A stretch of DNA of 64,000 nt from assembly GCF_013315695.1 (NCBI RefSeq), contig NZ_CP054353.1. The stretch is one strand, 5' to 3'. This document shows, in pieces, positions 4,428 through 50,849 of the stretch (positions within the stretch are counted from its first letter, which is position 1; the number at the start of each line of letters is the position of its first letter). The notes below the pieces were generated by a model. It did not search any database. It saw only the letters and a list, made by a program, of their open reading frames with translations, and was not told where the DNA came from. This DNA is from Escherichia coli (lineage in GTDB: Bacteria; Pseudomonadota; Gammaproteobacteria; Enterobacterales; Enterobacteriaceae). The translations under genes were made by a program, and so were the position numbers.

Positions 4428-5420
4428 CTAGTCAATGGACAGTTTATGGACACTATCAGCCAGCGGATTAAAGCTAATCGCATCCTGTAAAAAGTCCGGT
4501 GAAAAATGCGCATACGTCATCGTTTGTTGAATCGTGGCGTGCCCAAGGATTCGCTGTAACGTAACGATATTTCCGCCGTTCATCATGAAATGCGTGGCGA
4601 ACGTGTGACGCATAACGTGAGTCGCCTGACCTTTGGGTAAATCCGGTTTCACCTCCTGAAGGATATCCCGAAAACGGATGTAATCAGCCTGGTACAATAG
4701 CCCGGTTTTTCGGGTTTTTATCAACGAAAGCACCGTATCAGAAACAGGAACCGCGCGGGATTTTCCATTCTTTGTGTTAAAGAACATTACGCGGTTACCA
4801 ACGATATGCTCACCACGTAAGCCAGCTGCTTCCCCCCACCTTGCGCCAGTGGAAAGACACAGAACAGCAACACGACGCGCATCCCCCTCGAGTCGTTCAA
4901 GCAGCCGATCAATCTCATCATCTGAAAGAAAGGCCATTTCTGTATTCCTGACCTTGAGCTTACGTATTCCACGCACCGGGTTTTCGTTATGGAAAACCTC
5001 CGCATCAATCAACGCAGTAAACATTGCAGACAAGGCGCACAAATCACGATTAACACTGGAGGGCATTAATCCGGCCTGTAATTTGTCTGAACGATACCCG
5101 AGCATAAACTTTCGCGTCATCTCACTGGCGCGGGGGTCCCTCATCTCACGGTTTATTTTTTCCAGCCTGACCCTGTAAGTATCCCCGTAAGGCTGATTCC
5201 GGCCATCAAGCACCCACCAGGCATCTATCAGTTCGGATAACCGACGCTGATCAGCTGGCTTGGCCTGCCACGGTTTATCGTGGAAATTCTGCAAAACATA
5301 CCTTTCAAACTCCTGTGCCTTTGACTTCAGGGTAAAAATCTTACGGATCCGCTTTCCTTCCGTCCCTTGCGGTCTTACATCAACCTTATAACGCCCGTCT
5401 TTGAGTTGCTTAATCGACAT
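4428..5420 (-). CDS. int: tyrosine integrase, P2 Int-like
   Basis: 330 aa from ATG with GGAGGGG RBS; strong similarity to P2 Int as recalled (LSTGARWGEAA, HxLRHTFATHF, GHATIQQTMTYAHF). Confidence 0.92.
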   Translation of the reverse strand: MSIKQLKDGRYKVDVRPQGTEGKRIRKIFTLKSKAQEFERYVLQNFHDKPWQAKPADQRRLSELIDAWWVLDGRNQPYGDTYRVRLEKINREMRDPRASEMTRKFMLGYRSDKLQAGLMPSSVNRDLCALSAMFTALIDAEVFHNENPVRGIRKLKVRNTEMAFLSDDEIDRLLERLEGDARRVAVLCLSTGARWGEAAGLRGEHIVGNRVMFFNTKNGKSRAVPVSDTVLSLIKTRKTGLLYQADYIRFRDILQEVKPDLPKGQATHVMRHTFATHFMMNGGNIVTLQRILGHATIQQTMTYAHFSPDFLQDAISFNPLADSVHKLSID

Positions 5421-5489
5421 GATTAGCCCCTCCAACGGATGAATCAGCCGTACACTCTCTACGGGATGAAACCCGCTCGATGTACAGCG

Positions 5490-5831
5490 TTAGCCAGCAT
5501 TGCGACGAGATCGGGGTGATTTTTGGGTAATGCCGATTGAAACCTGATCGCCCTCCGACTGAATGGAGCCATCAAGAGAGAGAGCCGGAGCTATCTGACC
5601 GGCAGCAGGCATTGTCTTATCTTTTATTAGCCACATCATGTATTTTTCAAACCGATCAACTTGGAGAACCATCTCAACAATTTTGGCTCTGGCGCTTTTT
5701 TGCCCTGATTCATAGTTCCTTATGGCAGCTAAAGACAACCCCGTAATATCCGCAAATTCCTTTTGCGTTAGCCCTTCAGCCTTGCGTATTTGACGTAGCT
5801 TTTTTGCATAGTCTATTGACAAGATAACCAT
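5490..5831 (-). CDS. immunity repressor, P2 C-like HTH protein
   Basis: HTH (LTQKEFADITGLSLAAIRNYESG) and C-terminal GQIAPAL motif resembling P2 C as recalled; divergent from the early operon. Confidence 0.75.
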   Translation of the reverse strand: MVILSIDYAKKLRQIRKAEGLTQKEFADITGLSLAAIRNYESGQKSARAKIVEMVLQVDRFEKYMMWLIKDKTMPAAGQIAPALSLDGSIQSEGDQVSIGITQKSPRSRRNAG

Positions 5832-5935: not shown

Positions 5936-6460
5936 ATGCGGAAGTCAATTGCCGATAAAGAGTTATCTGACACACAAGCCCTTCAGGAAAACGACAGCAT
6001 CACCGAATCCGTTGGCGCGGCAAACGACGATGAACACCAAGAGGAAAAGAAAAAACGCACCTACAAAAAAGGGGCAACCTTGCGACTAGATGGCCCGGTA
6101 GCCGGACTTTGCTCACTTGAAAAAGGGGCAGCCTATATCGGGTTGACAAAAGCTGCATTGCGCGTGGCGCTTCAGCGAAATCAGATGCCTGGACACAAGA
6201 CCCGTTCAAACCCTGAAGATGAAAATTCGGATGGCGTGTGGTGGTTTAACGCCAGAGAGTGGGACAAGCTGGCTGACGAACTACCAGAATGCGAGCCGCC
6301 AGAATGGCACAACTGGAAAAGCTACTGGACATACGACCGACAGAAAAGAAAGTTTTCCCCGGCAAACAAAGAAGACTGCCAGACCATCAATGGAAAGCGG
6401 GTTTACACAGGAAGAAAGTCAAAACTGGAGCAACACCAATACAGTGGAGGCAACCAGTGA
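5936..6460 (+). CDS. first early-operon gene, Cox/excisionase-position protein with putative HTH and long C-terminal extension
   Basis: ATG with AGAGGA RBS; occupies the cox position divergent from C; 174 aa is about twice P2 Cox. Confidence 0.5.
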   Translation: MRKSIADKELSDTQALQENDSITESVGAANDDEHQEEKKKRTYKKGATLRLDGPVAGLCSLEKGAAYIGLTKAALRVALQRNQMPGHKTRSNPEDENSDGVWWFNAREWDKLADELPECEPPEWHNWKSYWTYDRQKRKFSPANKEDCQTINGKRVYTGRKSKLEQHQYSGGNQ

Positions 6461-6544: not shown

Positions 6545-6955
6545 CTACCAGGCTGATGGATGATCATCATCAATATCAAACACATTTCTGTAAAAACGAG
6601 AATGTTGCAAGGGATGAATAAGCGACCCCCAACAATCATAAATATCAGCCAGTTCGAACACATCGTATGAGAGATGTTGAGCAAACGATTCGGCACCTTC
6701 AAAAGACTCAAACACCTCATCATACAAGTGAATGTTTTCAGGATACGAAAGTGACAAGCAAAAACCAGACGTAGATTCCGTAACCAAGAAGACAAGGTGA
6801 TATTTATCATTCACCAGTGACTGAGCACATTTTTTTACAGAGCGAAGAATCACAGGGGAACGCGCGCCAATACGAAAGAGTTCTGCATGAGCACGGGCAT
6901 CAACAAAACTGTGAAACCCCTCACTTCTTGCAAGCTCACGTTCGGCAGCACGCAA
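6545..6955 (-). CDS. hypothetical protein on the strand opposite the early operon (only non-ATG start available)
   Basis: 136-codon frame fills an otherwise gene-free 540 bp; first codon is TTG and there is no in-frame ATG. Confidence 0.3.
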   Translation of the reverse strand: MRAAERELARSEGFHSFVDARAHAELFRIGARSPVILRSVKKCAQSLVNDKYHLVFLVTESTSGFCLSLSYPENIHLYDEVFESFEGAESFAQHLSYDVFELADIYDCWGSLIHPLQHSRFYRNVFDIDDDHPSAW

Positions 6956-7416: not shown

Positions 7417-7761
7417 ATGAAGAAACCGGGAAATTTTTCACAGCAGAATTTTCGAACAAGTGCCGAACGCCACGTTGCACGCCAGCACTTCCGCAAAAAT
7501 AGTGCGACCACAACCACTGAAATCCATGCCACACCAGACGGTCACCCGGTAAAACAAACCGGCAAGCACACCTGGACGATTGGCGACACTGGCATCGTTA
7601 TTCACAAAAGTTTTCGCAGCCCTGTTACTGGCAGATTTAATTTCACCCTGACTCGCGGGGATGATTACTTCGGACAGGACTTCACATTTTTTGAAGCCTT
7701 AAGAACGGCAGACAGATTAATCAGCGGCCTGCGTTTTCAATATCCGGGAAGCAAGCACTGA
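7417..7761 (+). CDS. early-operon hypothetical protein (114 aa)
   Basis: ATG at 7417 after AGGGA; ORF-track frame 7360..7761 trimmed. Confidence 0.55.
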   Translation: MKKPGNFSQQNFRTSAERHVARQHFRKNSATTTTEIHATPDGHPVKQTGKHTWTIGDTGIVIHKSFRSPVTGRFNFTLTRGDDYFGQDFTFFEALRTADRLISGLRFQYPGSKH

Positions 7762-7779: not shown

Positions 7780-8022
7780 ATGATCGAAGCCTACAAAATA
7801 CTTATCAATAACGCGTTGCAACGTTATCACTTTGAACTCGCAAACCGGGGCGTAACTAAGGATGAAAGCCTTCGTAACTCACTGCGCGGCGCAATTATGG
7901 GGCTATACAACTGCGCACTGGGCAGCGATGACCGTGAAGCGCTGGAAGAATTAAAGTCGATTATGACAGAACTGTTTGAAGGTGAAATTGTTGAGCCTTA
8001 CTTCACAGGGGTAGCCGCATGA
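7780..8022 (+). CDS. early-operon hypothetical protein (80 aa)
   Basis: ATG start; stop overlaps the next start (ATGA). Confidence 0.55.
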   Translation: MIEAYKILINNALQRYHFELANRGVTKDESLRNSLRGAIMGLYNCALGSDDREALEELKSIMTELFEGEIVEPYFTGVAA

Positions 8023-8144
8023 GCATATTTCTTTCATGGGTAATTCTGATTATCTCCGTGCTTATGGCAATCGGCATTATGCGAATTATCTACACACTGA
8101 AGGATATCGAATTATTCTTTACCGGCGATAAACGCCGTAAATAA
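8019..8144 (+). CDS. small hydrophobic peptide (41 aa, MSIFLSWVILIISVLMAIGIMRIIYTLKDIELFFTGDKRRK), one predicted TM helix
   Basis: Below the ORF-track cutoff; ATGA-coupled to the upstream gene; single TM segment with basic C-terminus. Confidence 0.45.
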   Translation: MSIFLSWVILIISVLMAIGIMRIIYTLKDIELFFTGDKRRK

Positions 8145-8156
8145 AGCGAAAACCTT

Positions 8157-8252
8157 ATGAAGAATGTAAAAGCAATACTCACCATCGCCACTGTATGGGT
8201 GATATTTCAGGTGAGTGCGCTTATCTGGTTAGCCCTGAAGATCTGGGAATAA
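8157..8252 (+). CDS. small hydrophobic peptide (31 aa, MKNVKAILTIATVWVIFQVSALIWLALKIWE)
   Basis: Found by manual translation, 12 bp after the previous peptide; single TM segment; weak RBS. Confidence 0.35.
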   Translation: MKNVKAILTIATVWVIFQVSALIWLALKIWE

Positions 8253-8357
8253 CCTGAAGCCGAAAGCAGGCGCGGAATAACACCAGAAAACACACGAGCA
8301 ATTAATTAAGGCATTCATGCCTTCGGGTTCCCTTTGTCTTTTTTCAGGAGTCAACAA

Positions 8358-8588
8358 ATGAGAACAGCCGAATCACCCGGCAGAAAAATAACCGCCAGAC
8401 CAGCTAACCATCATGCACATATCAGCATTGCCGCAAGAAAAGCCGAGCGTGCGCATATCTGCGAATTGCTGCATGACCTGGTTAACACAGCGAGAGAGAA
8501 GCACACCTCCCCGGAGGAAACCTGTTCATCCATTGAACGACTGATTGCAATACTCGCCAACCCAGACGAACTGAAGGGGTGCGCATAA
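8358..8588 (+). CDS. early-operon hypothetical protein (76 aa)
   Basis: ATG at 8358 with AGGAG RBS; stop overlaps the exonuclease start (TAATG). Confidence 0.55.
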   Translation: MRTAESPGRKITARPANHHAHISIAARKAERAHICELLHDLVNTAREKHTSPEETCSSIERLIAILANPDELKGCA

Positions 8589-9178: not shown

Positions 9179-9406
9179 ATGGTCGCCATCCTGAATGTGT
9201 GTTGCTGCCCCCCCCTGAACGTGGAAAGAAAAGCCCGCGCATCGCTGCGTTTATTCCGCGACGGCGTGCGGAATTTTTCACGCATAAAACCCCACGACTA
9301 CCTGGTAATAAGAATCGGTTTTCGCTGGCGATTGCTGAGCAAAAACAACGGGGCGTCATGGGATTTATTAACGCACGAAACCTATAACAAAGAGGCCGCG
9401 TTATGA
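9179..9406 (+). CDS. hypothetical small protein (75 aa) between exonuclease and Dam
   Basis: ATG with GAGGTG RBS; stop overlaps the dam start (ATGA); odd composition (CCCPP). Confidence 0.35.
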   Translation: MVAILNVCCCPPLNVERKARASLRLFRDGVRNFSRIKPHDYLVIRIGFRWRLLSKNNGASWDLLTHETYNKEAAL

Positions 9407-11164: not shown

Positions 11165-11347
11165 CAGAAACACCCCGCGTATGCAGACAATCACCAGTTG
11201 CCAGGTGATATTAATTCGCAACATTCTAACCACATCAGCACGCAACACAAAAACCGCTTGCCAGCGCTCGTCGTGTCAGGTTACATTTCCGCTGCACCTC
11301 ATAAAACGGGTGCCGGGTTTCGCAGCCTGCTGACAACCAAAGCGCAC

Positions 11348-11368
11348 AACCGCGCCAGCGGTTTTTTT
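11348..11368 (+). terminator. intrinsic terminator-like hairpin plus T-run (aaccgc-gcca-gcggtt-ttttt) in repeat copy 1
   Basis: 6-bp GC-rich stem followed by T7, nested in outer symmetry cgcacaa...ttgtgcg. Confidence 0.5.
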
Positions 11369-11547
11369 GTGCGTACTGTATTGCCACGTCTTTTTCGCGT
11401 CAGAATTATGGCGGGGCGTACGGGGCCGACTTCGGTCGGGCCGGGTTCTTTGCTAGCCGGTACTGCGAACCTCGTACGTCTCGCCACCCACAGTTTCGCA
11501 GCTCTGGATGGTGAGTTTTCACAACTTACTAGCAAAGAGGCCACACC

Positions 11548-12009: not shown

Positions 12010-12176
12010 ATGCAGACAATCACCAGTTGCCAGGTGATATTAATTCGCAACATTCTAACCACATCAGCACGCAACACAAAAACCGCTTGCCAGCGCTCGT
12101 CGTGTCGGGTTACATTTCCGCTGCACCTCATAAAACGGGTGCCGGGTTTCGCAGCCTGCCGACTAGCAAAGCGCAC

Positions 12177-12197
12177 AACCGCGCCAGCGGTTTTTTT
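12177..12197 (+). terminator. same terminator-like hairpin in repeat copy 2
   Basis: Identical sequence at +829. Confidence 0.5.
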
Positions 12198-12376
12198 GTG
12201 CGTACTGTATTGCCACGTCTTTTTCGCGTCAGAATTATGGCGGGGCGTACGGGGCCGACTTCGGTCGGGCCGGGTTCTTTGCTAGCCGGTACTGCGAACC
12301 TCGTACGTCTCGCCACCCACAGTTTCGCAGCTCTGGATGGTGAGTTTTCACAACTTACTAGCAAAGAGGCCACACC

Positions 12377-46700: not shown

Positions 46701-49700
46701 TTAGTCAAACGGCGGTGGGGCCAGCACTTCACGATTACCGTTGTGCCCCTGTTCGCTGACAATCCCCTGCGCTTCCATCTGTTCGATAATACGCGCTGCA
46801 CGGTTATAACCAATGCGGAACTGACGCTGTACGCCAGAAATTGATGCTTTGCGTTTTTCAGTGACAAACTGCACCGCCTGATCGAACAACGGATCCAGTT
46901 CTTCAGCGCCATCGAAACCGCCCGCGCCACCTTCGCTTTCACTGTCGGAGGTGATGCCATCAACATACTGTGGGCGGCCACGCGCTTTCCAGTCCTGCAC
47001 CACGGCATGAACTTCCTGATCGCGAACAAAAGCACCATGAACACGTACCGGCAACGTGGAGTTCGGCCCAGAGTAAAGCATATCCCCCATACCCAGCAGT
47101 GATTCCGCGCCAGCCTGATCAAGAATGGTACGTGAGTCAATCTTACTGGATACGGTAAAGGCGATACGGGTCGGAATATTCGCTTTAATCAGACCAGTAA
47201 TAACATCAACCGATGGACGCTGCGTTGCCAGTACGAGGTGGATACCCGCGGCACGGGCTTTTTGCGCCAGACGTGCTATCAGCTCTTCCACTTTTTTACC
47301 TACCGTCATCATCAGGTCGGCAAATTCGTCCACCAACACCACAATGTACGGTTCTTTTTTCAGCACCGGATGCTGGGCATCCATACTGTCACCCGGCTTC
47401 CAGTACGGGTCTGGAATCGGACGCATCATCCTATCGGCTTCAGCAATTTTTTCGTTATAACCCGCCAGATTACGCACACCCAGCGCAGACATCAGTTTAT
47501 AACGACGCTCCATCTCGTTAACACACCAGCGCAGCGCGTTGGCGGCATCTTTCATATCAGTAACGACTTCCGTTAACAGATGCGGAATGCCTTCATAAAC
47601 CGAAAGCTCCAGCATTTTCGGGTCGATCATGATGAAACGAACATCTTCTGGCTGTGCTTTATAAAGCATGCTCAGGATCATCGCGTTCACACCGACAGAC
47701 TTACCGGAACCGGTAGTCCCCGCAACCAACAAGTGCGGCATTTTTGCCAGATCGGCAACCACCGGCTCACCGGCGATATCTTTACCCAGCACCACGGTTA
47801 ATGGCGACGGATTATCGCGGAATTTGGCGTTATCCAAAACTTCGCGCAGATAAACGGTTTGTCGTTTTTTATTCGGTAACTCCAGACCTACATAGGGTTT
47901 GCCAGGAATAACTTCAACGACACGCACCGCCACCGTCGAAAGTGAACGGGCAAGGTCCCGTGACAAGTTAGAAATGCGCGCCGCTTTTACGCCAGGTGCC
48001 AGGTTAAGTTCAAAGCGAGTGATAACTGGCCCCGGAGAGTAATTGACGACATCGGCTTTAATACGGAAATCAGCCAGACGCGCTTCCACCAGACGCGCCA
48101 TTTGTTCAAGCGCAAAGGTATCTACCGGCTCCACTTCGCTCGGCGGAGGTGTCAACAAATCCAGAGAAGGCAGCGGCGTCGTCGGTTTATGCAACGGACG
48201 GCTGTCGCCATTACGCATCAACAGCGGATGAAGCAGGGTATCCTGCGGCTGTGGCGCAACTGGCTGTTGTGGCTGCTGATACTGCGGCTGCGGCGCAACT
48301 GGCTGTTGTGGCTGCTGATATTGCTGCTGCGGCGCAACCGGTTGTTGTGGCTGCTGATACTGCGGCTGCGGCGCAACTGGCTGTTGCGGCTGCTGATATT
48401 GCGGCTGTGGTGCAACCGGCTGTTGCGGCTGCTGATATTGCTGCTGCGGTGCAACCGGCTGTTGCGGCTGCTGATATTGCTGCTGCGGTGCAACCGGCTG
48501 TTGCGGCTGCTGATACTGCGGCTGCGGCGCAACTGGTTGCTGCGGCTGCTGATACTGTTGCTGCGGTGCAATCGGTTGTTGCGGCTGCTGTACAGGTTCA
48601 ACAATTGGCGTAAACAGCGGTTCGTGTGGACCATCATCCAGCAATGCTTTCATTGGCGAAAATTCAAAATCATCCAGAGTGAACGGATTCGCCCCAGCCG
48701 GTTGTTCGCCGGAATAACGTTGTTGTTGAGTTTGAGCAAACTGACGAGCCAGTTCAGCCTCTGCCGCAGCATCTGCATCTTCTGCGTTCACGGGCACATC
48801 ATGTTGATACTGTTCGCCGTAGCGTTGCTGCTGTGTCTGGGCGAATTGACGCGCCAGTTCATCCTGCTGCATCGCATCGATTTCATCATCGTTATACTGA
48901 TCGCCAGAATCATACTGATTGCGCTGGGCTTCACGGGCTTTTTCTTCTGCCGCACGCTGTGAGGGCAGCTTAATACCGTAAGACGCCAGTTCACGACGAG
49001 TTGGCACGCGGATGCGTTTCGGTCGTGGCAACTGGGGGCCAATCCCCTCTTTGACCTGTGGACGCGGTCCACCGCTATTTGCCAGACTGAAGACTGGCGC
49101 GGCAACGGTTGCGGCAGCCCCCGTCGCCAGTGTCGCTTTTTTCACGCCAGATGCCAGCGGAGAAACGGCGGCAGCGGCTTCCACTGGAGGTACTGCTGCA
49201 ACAGAAGGTGCTTTTAGCGAAGATTTGATCGGTTCTGGTTCTTTAACAGGTTCTGGAATCGGTTGATACCAGGCCGCAAGTTGTTCACGTTCACGGGCAC
49301 GCTTCTCTTCCACTTCTTCAAAATAGTAAAGCGGCGGACGCGCGGGTTTTGTCTCTTCTACAACGGGTTCAGGCTCCACAACAGGCTGCTGTTCAACGGG
49401 TTGCGGCTGTTGGTACAACGGCTCCTGAGCGGCTGGCTGCTGATAAGTTTGCTCCGTCTGGTATGTAGACTGTGGAGCAAAAGTGGATTGCTGCTCTTCG
49501 GCTTGCCAGGCGTTACCTGCCACCGATTGTTCTGGCGCAGGGGCGTAATACGGCTGTTGCGCAGACTGTTCCGGCGCAGGAGCGTAGTAAGGTTGTTGCG
49601 CAGATTGTTCAGCTGCAGGTGCATAATACGGCTGCTGTGGCTGTACTGGTTGTTGCAGCGGCTCATTATATTGCACTGCAGGCTGCGCATATTGTGGCTG

Positions 49701-50849
49701 CTGTGGGTAACCTTCCGGTGCAGGAGCAATAACCGGCTCTCCCGTTTGTGGCCCCGGTACAGGCTGCCAGGCTACTGTAGGTTGTGCAGGTGGAACATCA
49801 ACAGAGGCAACAGGCGGCGTCTGAGTCACAGGTTCAACCGGCGCAGCCCAGCTTTGTGTCGCCGTGGTAGCAGCAGCTGCTACAGCAACAGGTTCGGTAA
49901 TTGGCGCACCGTTTAATAATGGATCGTACTCGTCATATTCTGGCTGCGTTGCACGATTGCCCGAAAAGAGGACGTCGTCAGGGTCGGCAGCCACACCGCG
50001 TGCAGTGTAGGTAATCTCTTCGTCATCATCCATCCGCTTACCGGAGAACAACGCAGCGTCTGTTTGCCGCCCCATCGGATTAATGAATTTTTCCGCCAAC
50101 CGTTTACGACGCGCTAGCGCGCCGCGAAGAATACGGGCACGGCGTGATTCATGCTGTTTGCCGTGACTTTCATCTTCTTCATATTCTTCGTCGTCTTCAT
50201 ACTCATCTTCATCGACCCAGGTATCATCGCGACGGGTACGATTACTGGCGAAGGTAAGAATATTTAAAATCCAGCCGCCGAGTTTTTCAGCAATGGTCAC
50301 CCATGACCAACCGGTGAACAGCGTCAGGCCCGCTGCCCAAACGCAGAGCAGTGCAATAGTTCCCCCGCTACTGTGTAGCAGTGGTTGTAGCGTAGTGCTC
50401 AGTAAGCTGCCAATGACGCCACCGGAGGCAAAATACCAGATATCGTCAGCGTTGATTGCCGCCAGACCACAGGAGGTAAGGATGAGCGCCAAAACGCCAA
50501 TGATGCGTAGCGAAACGGCAAAATAATCAATGTATTCGTCGCTGGACTGATGACGCCAGGCAAACCAACAACCGCCGACAATAATGACGGGAATGGTGTA
50601 AGCCATCACGCCAAAAATAAAGAACAGCGTATCTGCCAGCCATGCACCGGGCATCCCACCTAAATTATGGATAGGTTCATGCCAGGCCGTTTGCGACCAG
50701 CTGGGGTCCGAAGGGTTAAAGCTTAGTAAGGCAGCCATCAACCAGACGGCAAACAGGACAATAAGGATCAGCAACGCCTCCAGAAGGCGGCGGCCGCTAC
50801 TTAACTTTGTCAATGTGACTTCTTTGTCTTCAGTGTATTCCTGGCTCAA
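46701..50849 (-). CDS. ftsK: DNA translocase FtsK
   Basis: 1382 aa; N-terminal membrane domain, Pro/Gln-rich linker, C-terminal motor with Walker A. Confidence 0.95.
48235..48600. repeat. in-frame tandem 33-bp repeats in the FtsK linker ([13 protein letters not shown] units, about 10 copies)
   Basis: Repeated CAGCCGCAACAGCCGGTTGCACC units visible in DNA and protein; locus is about 50 codons longer than the K-12 length I recall. Confidence 0.8.

Follow-up and report, generated by a model that had tools for sequence, protein, structure and literature searches.

The stretch of Escherichia coli DNA analysed here, a 64,000-nucleotide segment of contig NZ_CP054353.1 (RefSeq assembly GCF_013315695.1; hereafter the window), carries the left (early) arm of a P88-like prophage (Xuanwuvirus, P2 family), in which two very small hydrophobic peptides are encoded in direct succession. 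Peptide 1 is a plus-strand open reading frame (ORF) of 41 amino acids (aa) at positions 8019-8144 (MSIFLSWVILIISVLMAIGIMRIIYTLKDIELFFTGDKRRK); peptide 2 comprises 31 aa and occupies positions 8157-8252 of the same strand (MKNVKAILTIATVWVIFQVSALIWLALKIWE). Both pairs of coordinates, as given by an earlier note on this DNA, agree exactly with the ORF listing. The arrangement which that note called back to back is head-to-tail, with a 12-nt A-rich spacer (8145-8156, plus strand) between the stop codon of peptide 1 and the start codon of peptide 2. Upstream, peptide 1 is coupled to an 80-aa gene of the DUF4754 family (7780-8022, plus strand; Pfam PF15946, E = 1e-15; PHROG 2549), its ATG (8019-8021) overlapping the TGA of this gene (8020-8022) in the ATGA configuration already pointed out in the note. 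A Shine-Dalgarno (SD)-like AGGGG (8007-8011, plus strand) lies within the last DUF4754 codons, 7 nt before the peptide 1 ATG. Peptide 2 is carried on a 131-bp presence/absence segment (8145-8275, assigned to no strand) with short AATAA repeats at its flanks, and is followed by the untranslated leader (8253-8357, plus strand) of a 76-aa early gene (8358-8588, plus strand; PHROG 22206), after which an exonuclease gene is found. The two peptides had moreover been described as invisible to the ORF track. They are indeed absent from it, but only because of its length cut-off: the Prokaryotic Genome Annotation Pipeline (PGAP) does annotate peptide 1, as "hypothetical protein" WP_000021704.1, and the exact sequence is deposited as UniProt A0A0Q3F2A7 and occurs on at least 1000 contigs. 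The homologue in phage P88, gp07 (YP_009113050, 37 aa), carries a "membrane protein" annotation.

Using DUF4754 as an independent anchor, we compared 80 IMG/VR loci together with E. coli and phage loci. Hereby, a homologous peptide of 37 or 41 aa follows DUF4754 with an ATGA overlap in 87 out of 87 loci, the window included, and DUF4761, DUF4754 and the peptide stand in this order throughout, in E. coli, E. albertii and phage P88 as well as on IMG/VR and metagenome contigs. Even two divergent members (P0096 and P0098, loci L115 and L118) keep this order and the 4-nt overlap. Among 40 distinct nucleotide versions of peptide 1 the ratio of non-synonymous to synonymous polymorphism (pN/pS) is 0.30 in its own frame and 1.1-1.7 in the other forward frames, while stop codons interrupt four of the five other frames in most sequences and the fifth in half of them. 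Variable columns are distributed over codon positions 1, 2 and 3 as 19, 11 and 26. Between the window and P88, 16 synonymous changes at 22 sites are found next to 15 non-synonymous changes at 77 sites; synonymous sites are thus nearly saturated at few non-synonymous changes, which points to a constraint on the protein and not on a nucleic-acid element. The amino-acid identity to P88 amounts to 66% for peptide 1 and 41% for DUF4754. The earlier note had proposed conservation of the frames at the amino-acid level in relatives as a check on its reading, and peptide 1 passes this check clearly. Peptide 1 is a real gene under purifying selection and belongs to an already annotated family.

It is this conservation, and not the composition of the peptide, which raises the finding above chance. 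We ranked all 269 ATG-initiated ORFs of 25-60 aa in the six frames of the window by their best 19-residue Kyte-Doolittle window. Peptide 1 (2.75) takes the second and peptide 2 (2.15) the eighth place, and 11 of the 269 reach a value of at least 2.0. The top-scoring ORF (50151-50267, 38 aa) runs antisense to ftsK (46701-50849, minus strand), opposite an acidic stretch of that gene, and is a product of chance, so that hydrophobicity alone is weak evidence.

The family of peptide 1 is very small, with almost all members in Escherichia. Searched with a profile, 1.84 billion representative proteins yield 18, all of the peptide 1 type; the P88 gp07-like family alone is returned, with a best E value of 2e-18. 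Members of this family are 61-98% identical to peptide 1. Membership of peptide 1 in this family is borne out by sequence similarity, by the ATGA-coupled slot and by the single helix. In a scan of GTDB with one genome per species E. albertii alone was found, and phage matches are limited to P88-like phages of E. coli and Citrobacter rodentium. About 9% of the complete E. coli genomes, pathogenic lineages included, carry a peptide 1-type gene, and in approximately 455 of 507 matching E. coli genomes the sole homology detectable by blastn begins at 8016-8017, i.e. at the start of peptide 1. Invariant or near-invariant positions are F4, S6, W7, I12, S13, V14, A17, I18, G19, I23, I24, K28 and F34. 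Among them S6, W7, I12, V14, I23, I24, K28 and F34 are invariant, and S13, A17 and G19 are invariant in a 15-sequence alignment and 96-98% conserved over 51 unique peptides. A conserved lipid-facing stripe along the transmembrane helix was considered and rejected: variable positions show no significant helical periodicity over the membrane-spanning residues (p = 0.22), and a marginal one over the tail (p = 0.04). In E. coli SCU-106 (locus L114, approximately 1379-1483) another unannotated hydrophobic peptide of 34 aa (MSSTLIIIASWVILLASFVVSYFVVKLLTQYLNL) occupies the ATGA-coupled slot after DUF4754; comparison with shuffled sequences (p = 0.0004-0.015) makes remote homology to peptide 1 probable.

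Peptide 1 has a normal SD. The predicted duplex between its SD and the anti-SD has an energy of -6.6 kcal/mol, compared to -5.4 to -11.6 kcal/mol for most neighbouring genes and a background mean of -2.4 kcal/mol, and almost every one of the 87 loci has GGGG, GGGA or GGAG here. AlphaFold2 predicts one continuous helix from residue 2 to residue 38 with a predicted local distance difference test (pLDDT) score of 84, which along with the Kyte-Doolittle value is consistent with a single N-terminal transmembrane helix. The N-terminus is uncharged; positive charges are found at R22 and K28 and in the KRRK end. Applied to this charge distribution, the positive-inside rule suggests an N-out, C-in topology for peptide 1, and the charges of peptide 2 suggest the opposite, N-in orientation. 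The structural part of the earlier note, two single-helix hydrophobic peptides in a phage early region, holds.

In contrast to peptide 1, which belongs to a conserved pair with DUF4754, peptide 2 is a rare addition. The segment that encodes it is present in 20-25 of 5426 complete E. coli genomes, on 9 IMG/VR contigs and in 12 of 241 million metagenome records, and wherever the contig includes the upstream sequence, it stands behind the 41-aa form of peptide 1 which ends in DKRRK. In E. coli 2013C-3033, which lacks the 131-bp segment, the stop codon of peptide 1 is joined directly to the downstream leader; in locus L113 the sequence passes from this stop codon straight into ATAACACCAG... of the leader. 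Homology to the A-rich spacer downstream of peptide 1 in P88-type phages is confined to the first approximately 20 nt of peptide 2 (p = 0.008); at the position of the peptide 2 ATG these phages read ATA or TAA, not a start codon. Within the same P88-type spacer a minimal start-stop, ATGTAA or ATGTGA, is frequent ahead of a hairpin (P88, locus L002, 3078-3083), at the place taken in the window lineage by the opening codons of peptide 2. A few annotation pipelines other than PGAP call peptide 2 (DAU42316.1, KGM81220.1).

The coding evidence for peptide 2 comes from its variants. The frame is open in 11 out of 11 of them (31-34 aa), a 3-nt indel among them is in-frame, and the hydrophobic core IATxWxxFQVxALIWLALK is kept. 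Here, pN/pS is 0.30 in the own frame and above 2 in the other frames. Between the window and one diverged relative (L087) 8 synonymous and 7 non-synonymous changes are observed, where about 3.4 synonymous changes are expected (binomial p = 0.009). Peptide 2 thereby passes the check on frame conservation as well, on a small sample of approximately 11 variants, and we consider it probable that peptide 2 is translated and selected, which makes it a plausible new, lineage-specific micro-gene. Its ribosome-binding site had been called weak in the earlier note, in line with an SD:anti-SD duplex of -1.8 kcal/mol against the background mean of -2.4 kcal/mol. The 12-nt gap after peptide 1 has the same length in all variants and is predicted to be unpaired in the RNA fold; given this constant distance from the peptide 1 UAA and the unpaired start region, termination-reinitiation is the most likely route of translation. 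Two other origins of the segment's features were tried and rejected. An RNA structure is one of them: while the hairpin in the peptide 2 region of the window folds better than shuffled sequences (z = -2.3), the folds of the variants range from z = -2.1 to +0.4 and use different pairings. A diverged tandem copy or paralogue of peptide 1 is the other; compared to composition-matched shuffles its similarity gives p = 0.09-0.7 for the protein and p = 0.78 for the DNA.

The leader that follows peptide 2 (8253-8357) diverges by 1-5% in the same four comparisons in which the peptide 2 ORF diverges by 4-17%, and is more conserved than most of the surrounding coding sequence. It contains a perfect 7-bp inverted repeat, AAGGCAT-TC-ATGCCTT (8308-8323), and a T-run; the repeat may represent a hairpin in the RNA or a palindrome bound by a protein. 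As a whole the leader folds no better than shuffled sequences (z = -0.15). The idea that it is a remnant of the P88-type 3' end of peptide 1, spacer and hairpin was dismissed (p = 0.43 and 0.14). A separate 5-bp hairpin, TCCGC-ATTC-GCGGA, is found about 45 nt after peptide 1 (P88, 3090-3103). It is present in all 78 loci without peptide 2 and missing from exactly the 20 loci with peptide 2. Its pairing is kept in 145 of 145 cells, with compensatory double changes at two pairs and wobble changes at three, a pattern that fits an mRNA hairpin; a search of Rfam gave no match for it.

The partner gene DUF4754 is predicted by AlphaFold2 (pLDDT 89) to form a three-helix bundle (helices 2-23, 29-48 and 52-66) with a conserved flexible C-terminal tail. 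The model is a generic bundle without a PDB fold match at E <= 0.001. Mosaic recombination junctions are located at both borders of peptide 1, i.e. at 8016-8017 and at 8145. Among relatives that share peptide 1, the DUF4754 allele in front of it or the gene modules behind it are unrelated. Compared to the window, L087 differs by 59% in DUF4754 and by 6% in peptide 1, while a second relative (L098) differs by 0% and 5%, respectively. Judged by these comparisons, DUF4754 and peptide 1 are obligately syntenic, but not co-adapted allele by allele.

The surroundings conform to a prophage early region. In close E. coli relatives the integration site adjoins dmsA. In the window the integrase (4428-5435) and a C-type helix-turn-helix repressor (5490-5831) are encoded on the minus strand and followed by a cox-like gene (5936-6460). 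Between the latter and DUF4761, which ends at 7761 and is preceded by an 87-aa ORF, a 136-aa gene lies on the minus strand (6545-6955), which resembles a moron inserted into the early region. Downstream of the 76-aa gene, a 3'-5' exonuclease, a ParE-like ORF, a Dam methylase and DUF4406 are encoded, with replication gene A beyond. The two peptides thus sit between cox and gene A, and their placement inside the early operon by the earlier note is a fair description, the transcription unit being inferred from the P2 paradigm. The ParE-like ORF, a short frame at approximately 9199-9405 between the exonuclease and Dam genes, is annotated as 'ParE family toxin-like protein' in close relatives and has no obvious antitoxin gene alongside. 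Further downstream, isrK (65.9 and 64.3 bits) and the C4 antisense RNA (82.8 bits each) are present in two copies each, at 11294-11491 and 12123-12320; this arrangement, with a spacing of about 829 bp, indicates that a segment shortly before the replication gene was duplicated in tandem.

Taken together, we put the probability at about 60% that peptide 1 is a real membrane micro-protein gene, that peptide 2 is a younger add-on and that both have an accessory early role. Peptide 1 would be a bitopic inner-membrane micro-protein, translated in lock-step with DUF4754 via the ATGA overlap and helped by its own SD. Its residues 2-21 would form the membrane helix, with S13-x3-A17-x-G19 as an invariant or near-invariant small-residue motif, and residues 22-37 an amphipathic, mostly basic cytoplasmic tail. 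Peptide 2 would be a younger, lineage-restricted membrane micro-ORF borne on the 131-bp indel, and ribosomes terminating at the peptide 1 UAA, 12 nt upstream, would read it without an SD by reinitiation. To judge from the position between cox and gene A, both peptides would be made only when the early operon is derepressed, upon induction or infection. They may then act in the inner membrane by helix-helix packing, either with themselves or with a host membrane protein, and on the cytosolic side DUF4754 is the likely partner of peptide 1. An accessory role of this kind would belong to host takeover or exclusion and not to replication or lysis. Our best guess from position and anatomy is thus that of inner-membrane accessory factors made on induction; the host-takeover or toxin-like role raised in the earlier note is plausible on the grounds of position. 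As to lysis, holins, antiholins and spanins are encoded next to the endolysin in the late lysis cassette, which is not where these peptides are found.

Several observations weigh against this proposal. Neither peptide has a significant match in Pfam, PHROGs, NCBIfam or PADLOC, and a PDB sequence search gave no match. For the neighbouring genes the PADLOC defence models yielded no more than sub-threshold noise. In the literature searched, no paper deals with DUF4754, these peptide sequences or the early genes of P88-like phages. A physical partnership of DUF4754 and peptide 1 gains nothing from natural fusions, as all proteins of 103-116 aa that might be taken for such fusions are frameshifted read-throughs, and the free reassortment of alleles with junctions at the gene border argues against a finely co-adapted physical pair. 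The minus-strand gene at 6545-6955 breaks the early region, so that a continuous transcription unit is assumed. Peptide 2, in addition, has no SD in any variant, is never annotated by PGAP in RefSeq records and is represented by no more than about 11 variants; no other segment of the locus evolves as fast (16.7% compared to 4-12%), and a 1-nt indel alters its C-terminus from KIWE to KNLGII.

These last points are also the case for the alternative that peptide 1 is the one real gene of the two, peptide 2 being a frame left open by chance in a 131-bp intergenic indel that would at most matter as untranslated leader RNA. Most relatives lack the segment, hydrophobic small ORFs arise by chance in the window, as the frame antisense to ftsK illustrates, and the window's own version folds better than its shuffles. 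However, a chance frame would hardly stay open in every variant, with an in-frame indel, a kept hydrophobic core and a constant 12-nt gap, nor would it show an excess of synonymous changes confined to its own frame, and the RNA fold is the feature that varies among variants. We therefore regard this alternative as unlikely, if still to be reckoned with. A leader peptide or attenuator function of peptide 2 is not indicated either, given that no plus-strand terminator was found and that the variants do not share a common fold over the ORF. The related notion that 8019-8144 is conserved as a cis-acting nucleic-acid element, such as a recombination linker, an RNA structure or a binding site, could appeal to the stretch being the sole blastn-detectable homology in about 455 E. 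coli genomes and to the mosaic junctions on both sides. It is largely refuted by the concentration of variable columns at codon position 3, and the near-saturation of synonymous sites against P88 (16 of 22) with a protein that is still 66% identical, the stops in all other frames in many or most sequences and the lack of an Rfam match in 7900-8450, for which both strands were scanned at E <= 10, leave it with hardly any probability.

Two further alternatives accept the peptides as genes and differ in what they do. Superinfection exclusion would make peptide 1, together with DUF4754, a factor that blocks DNA entry and protects the infected or induced cell from secondary phages, in a role like that of T4 Imm or of the Sie proteins of temperate phages. 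The predicted inner-membrane location is compatible with this, as is the place of peptide 1 in an accessory, mosaic part of the genome that has recombination junctions at its borders and is not linked to lysis or replication genes; T4 imm is an early gene, too. Yet neither homology to known exclusion proteins nor a PADLOC match was detected, the known Sie proteins are larger and no promoter for expression in the lysogen was found, which makes such a function rather improbable. Still somewhat less credit is due to the idea that one or both peptides are membrane-depolarising type I toxins, whose effect would be to kill the host, to arrest it or to keep the prophage stable. A toxin-like role was suggested in the earlier note, and the peptides share with Hok, Ldr, TisB and DinQ (PMC3567139, PMC8309996) the small size, the single hydrophobic helix and a charged C-terminus; some of these toxins are prophage-borne, and prophage-borne type I systems are known (PMC12648545). 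What separates them from the toxins is that no antisense RNA was found for either peptide and that neither is preceded by a promoter of its own or by a long, folded 5' untranslated region: peptide 1 overlaps the upstream gene and is coupled to it within the operon, and peptide 2 starts 12 nt after peptide 1. On the antisense strand, promoter-like matches occur at chance level; the sole one within peptide 1 (8070-8043) has no recognisable hexamers in its P88 counterpart, as judged by reading the sequence. Rfam contains no antitoxin or small RNA that matches 7900-8450, and neither Pfam, NCBIfam nor PADLOC indicates similarity to a toxin.

Returning to peptide 1 as an accessory membrane micro-protein with peptide 2 as its younger addition, the nearest known system is the cluster of P88 gp07, WP_000021704.1 and A0A0Q3F2A7. 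Peptide 1 is a member of this cluster and shares with gp07 66% identity, the ATGA-coupled slot and the single helix, while the window allele has 41 aa and ends in DKRRK and the P88 protein has 37 aa and ends in TGE. In phage 186, fil and dhr, and in P2, orf78-orf83, are accessory genes between cox/apl and gene A with non-essential, host-directed functions, and thus occupy the same neighbourhood of a P2-family early operon. However, tblastn searches with peptide 1 and DUF4754 matched P88-like phages only, neither 186 nor P2. Small membrane proteins such as MgrB, AcrZ and MgtS regulate larger membrane proteins (reviewed in PMC12648545) and resemble the peptides in comprising fewer than 50 aa, in having one transmembrane helix with conserved small residues and in lacking a catalytic domain. 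By this analogy a mode of action like that of the regulatory small membrane proteins appears most likely, although there is no sequence similarity and theirs are chromosomal stress-regulon genes with own promoters, compared to phage early-operon genes here. SPO1 gp56, the product of an early host-takeover module that is reported to inhibit host cell division (PMC6873191), offers a functional analogy only, as it stems from an unrelated phage of a Gram-positive host.

A bolder version of the proposal, to which we give little credence, regards peptide 2 as a recently born micro-gene. Hereby, the 131-bp insertion would have put a hydrophobic frame behind the conserved A-rich spacer, which does not code for protein in P88-type phages, and SD-less reinitiation after peptide 1 would translate it, and the resulting two-peptide module of opposite topologies would, together with DUF4754, form a membrane-tethered early device for host manipulation or exclusion.

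In conclusion, this is a solid, ordinary small-protein finding. Peptide 1 was already known as an annotated hypothetical or membrane protein; what is plausibly new is peptide 2 as a rare, indel-borne candidate micro-gene. The value lies in the annotation and in an experimental lead, and current concepts are unchanged by it. With its sharp conservation and its constant coupling to DUF4754, the membrane helix of 37-41 aa is a sensible candidate for small-protein work on prophage induction, and the presence or absence of peptide 2 on a near-identical background provides a clean genetic contrast for the study of small-gene birth and of SD-less translation.

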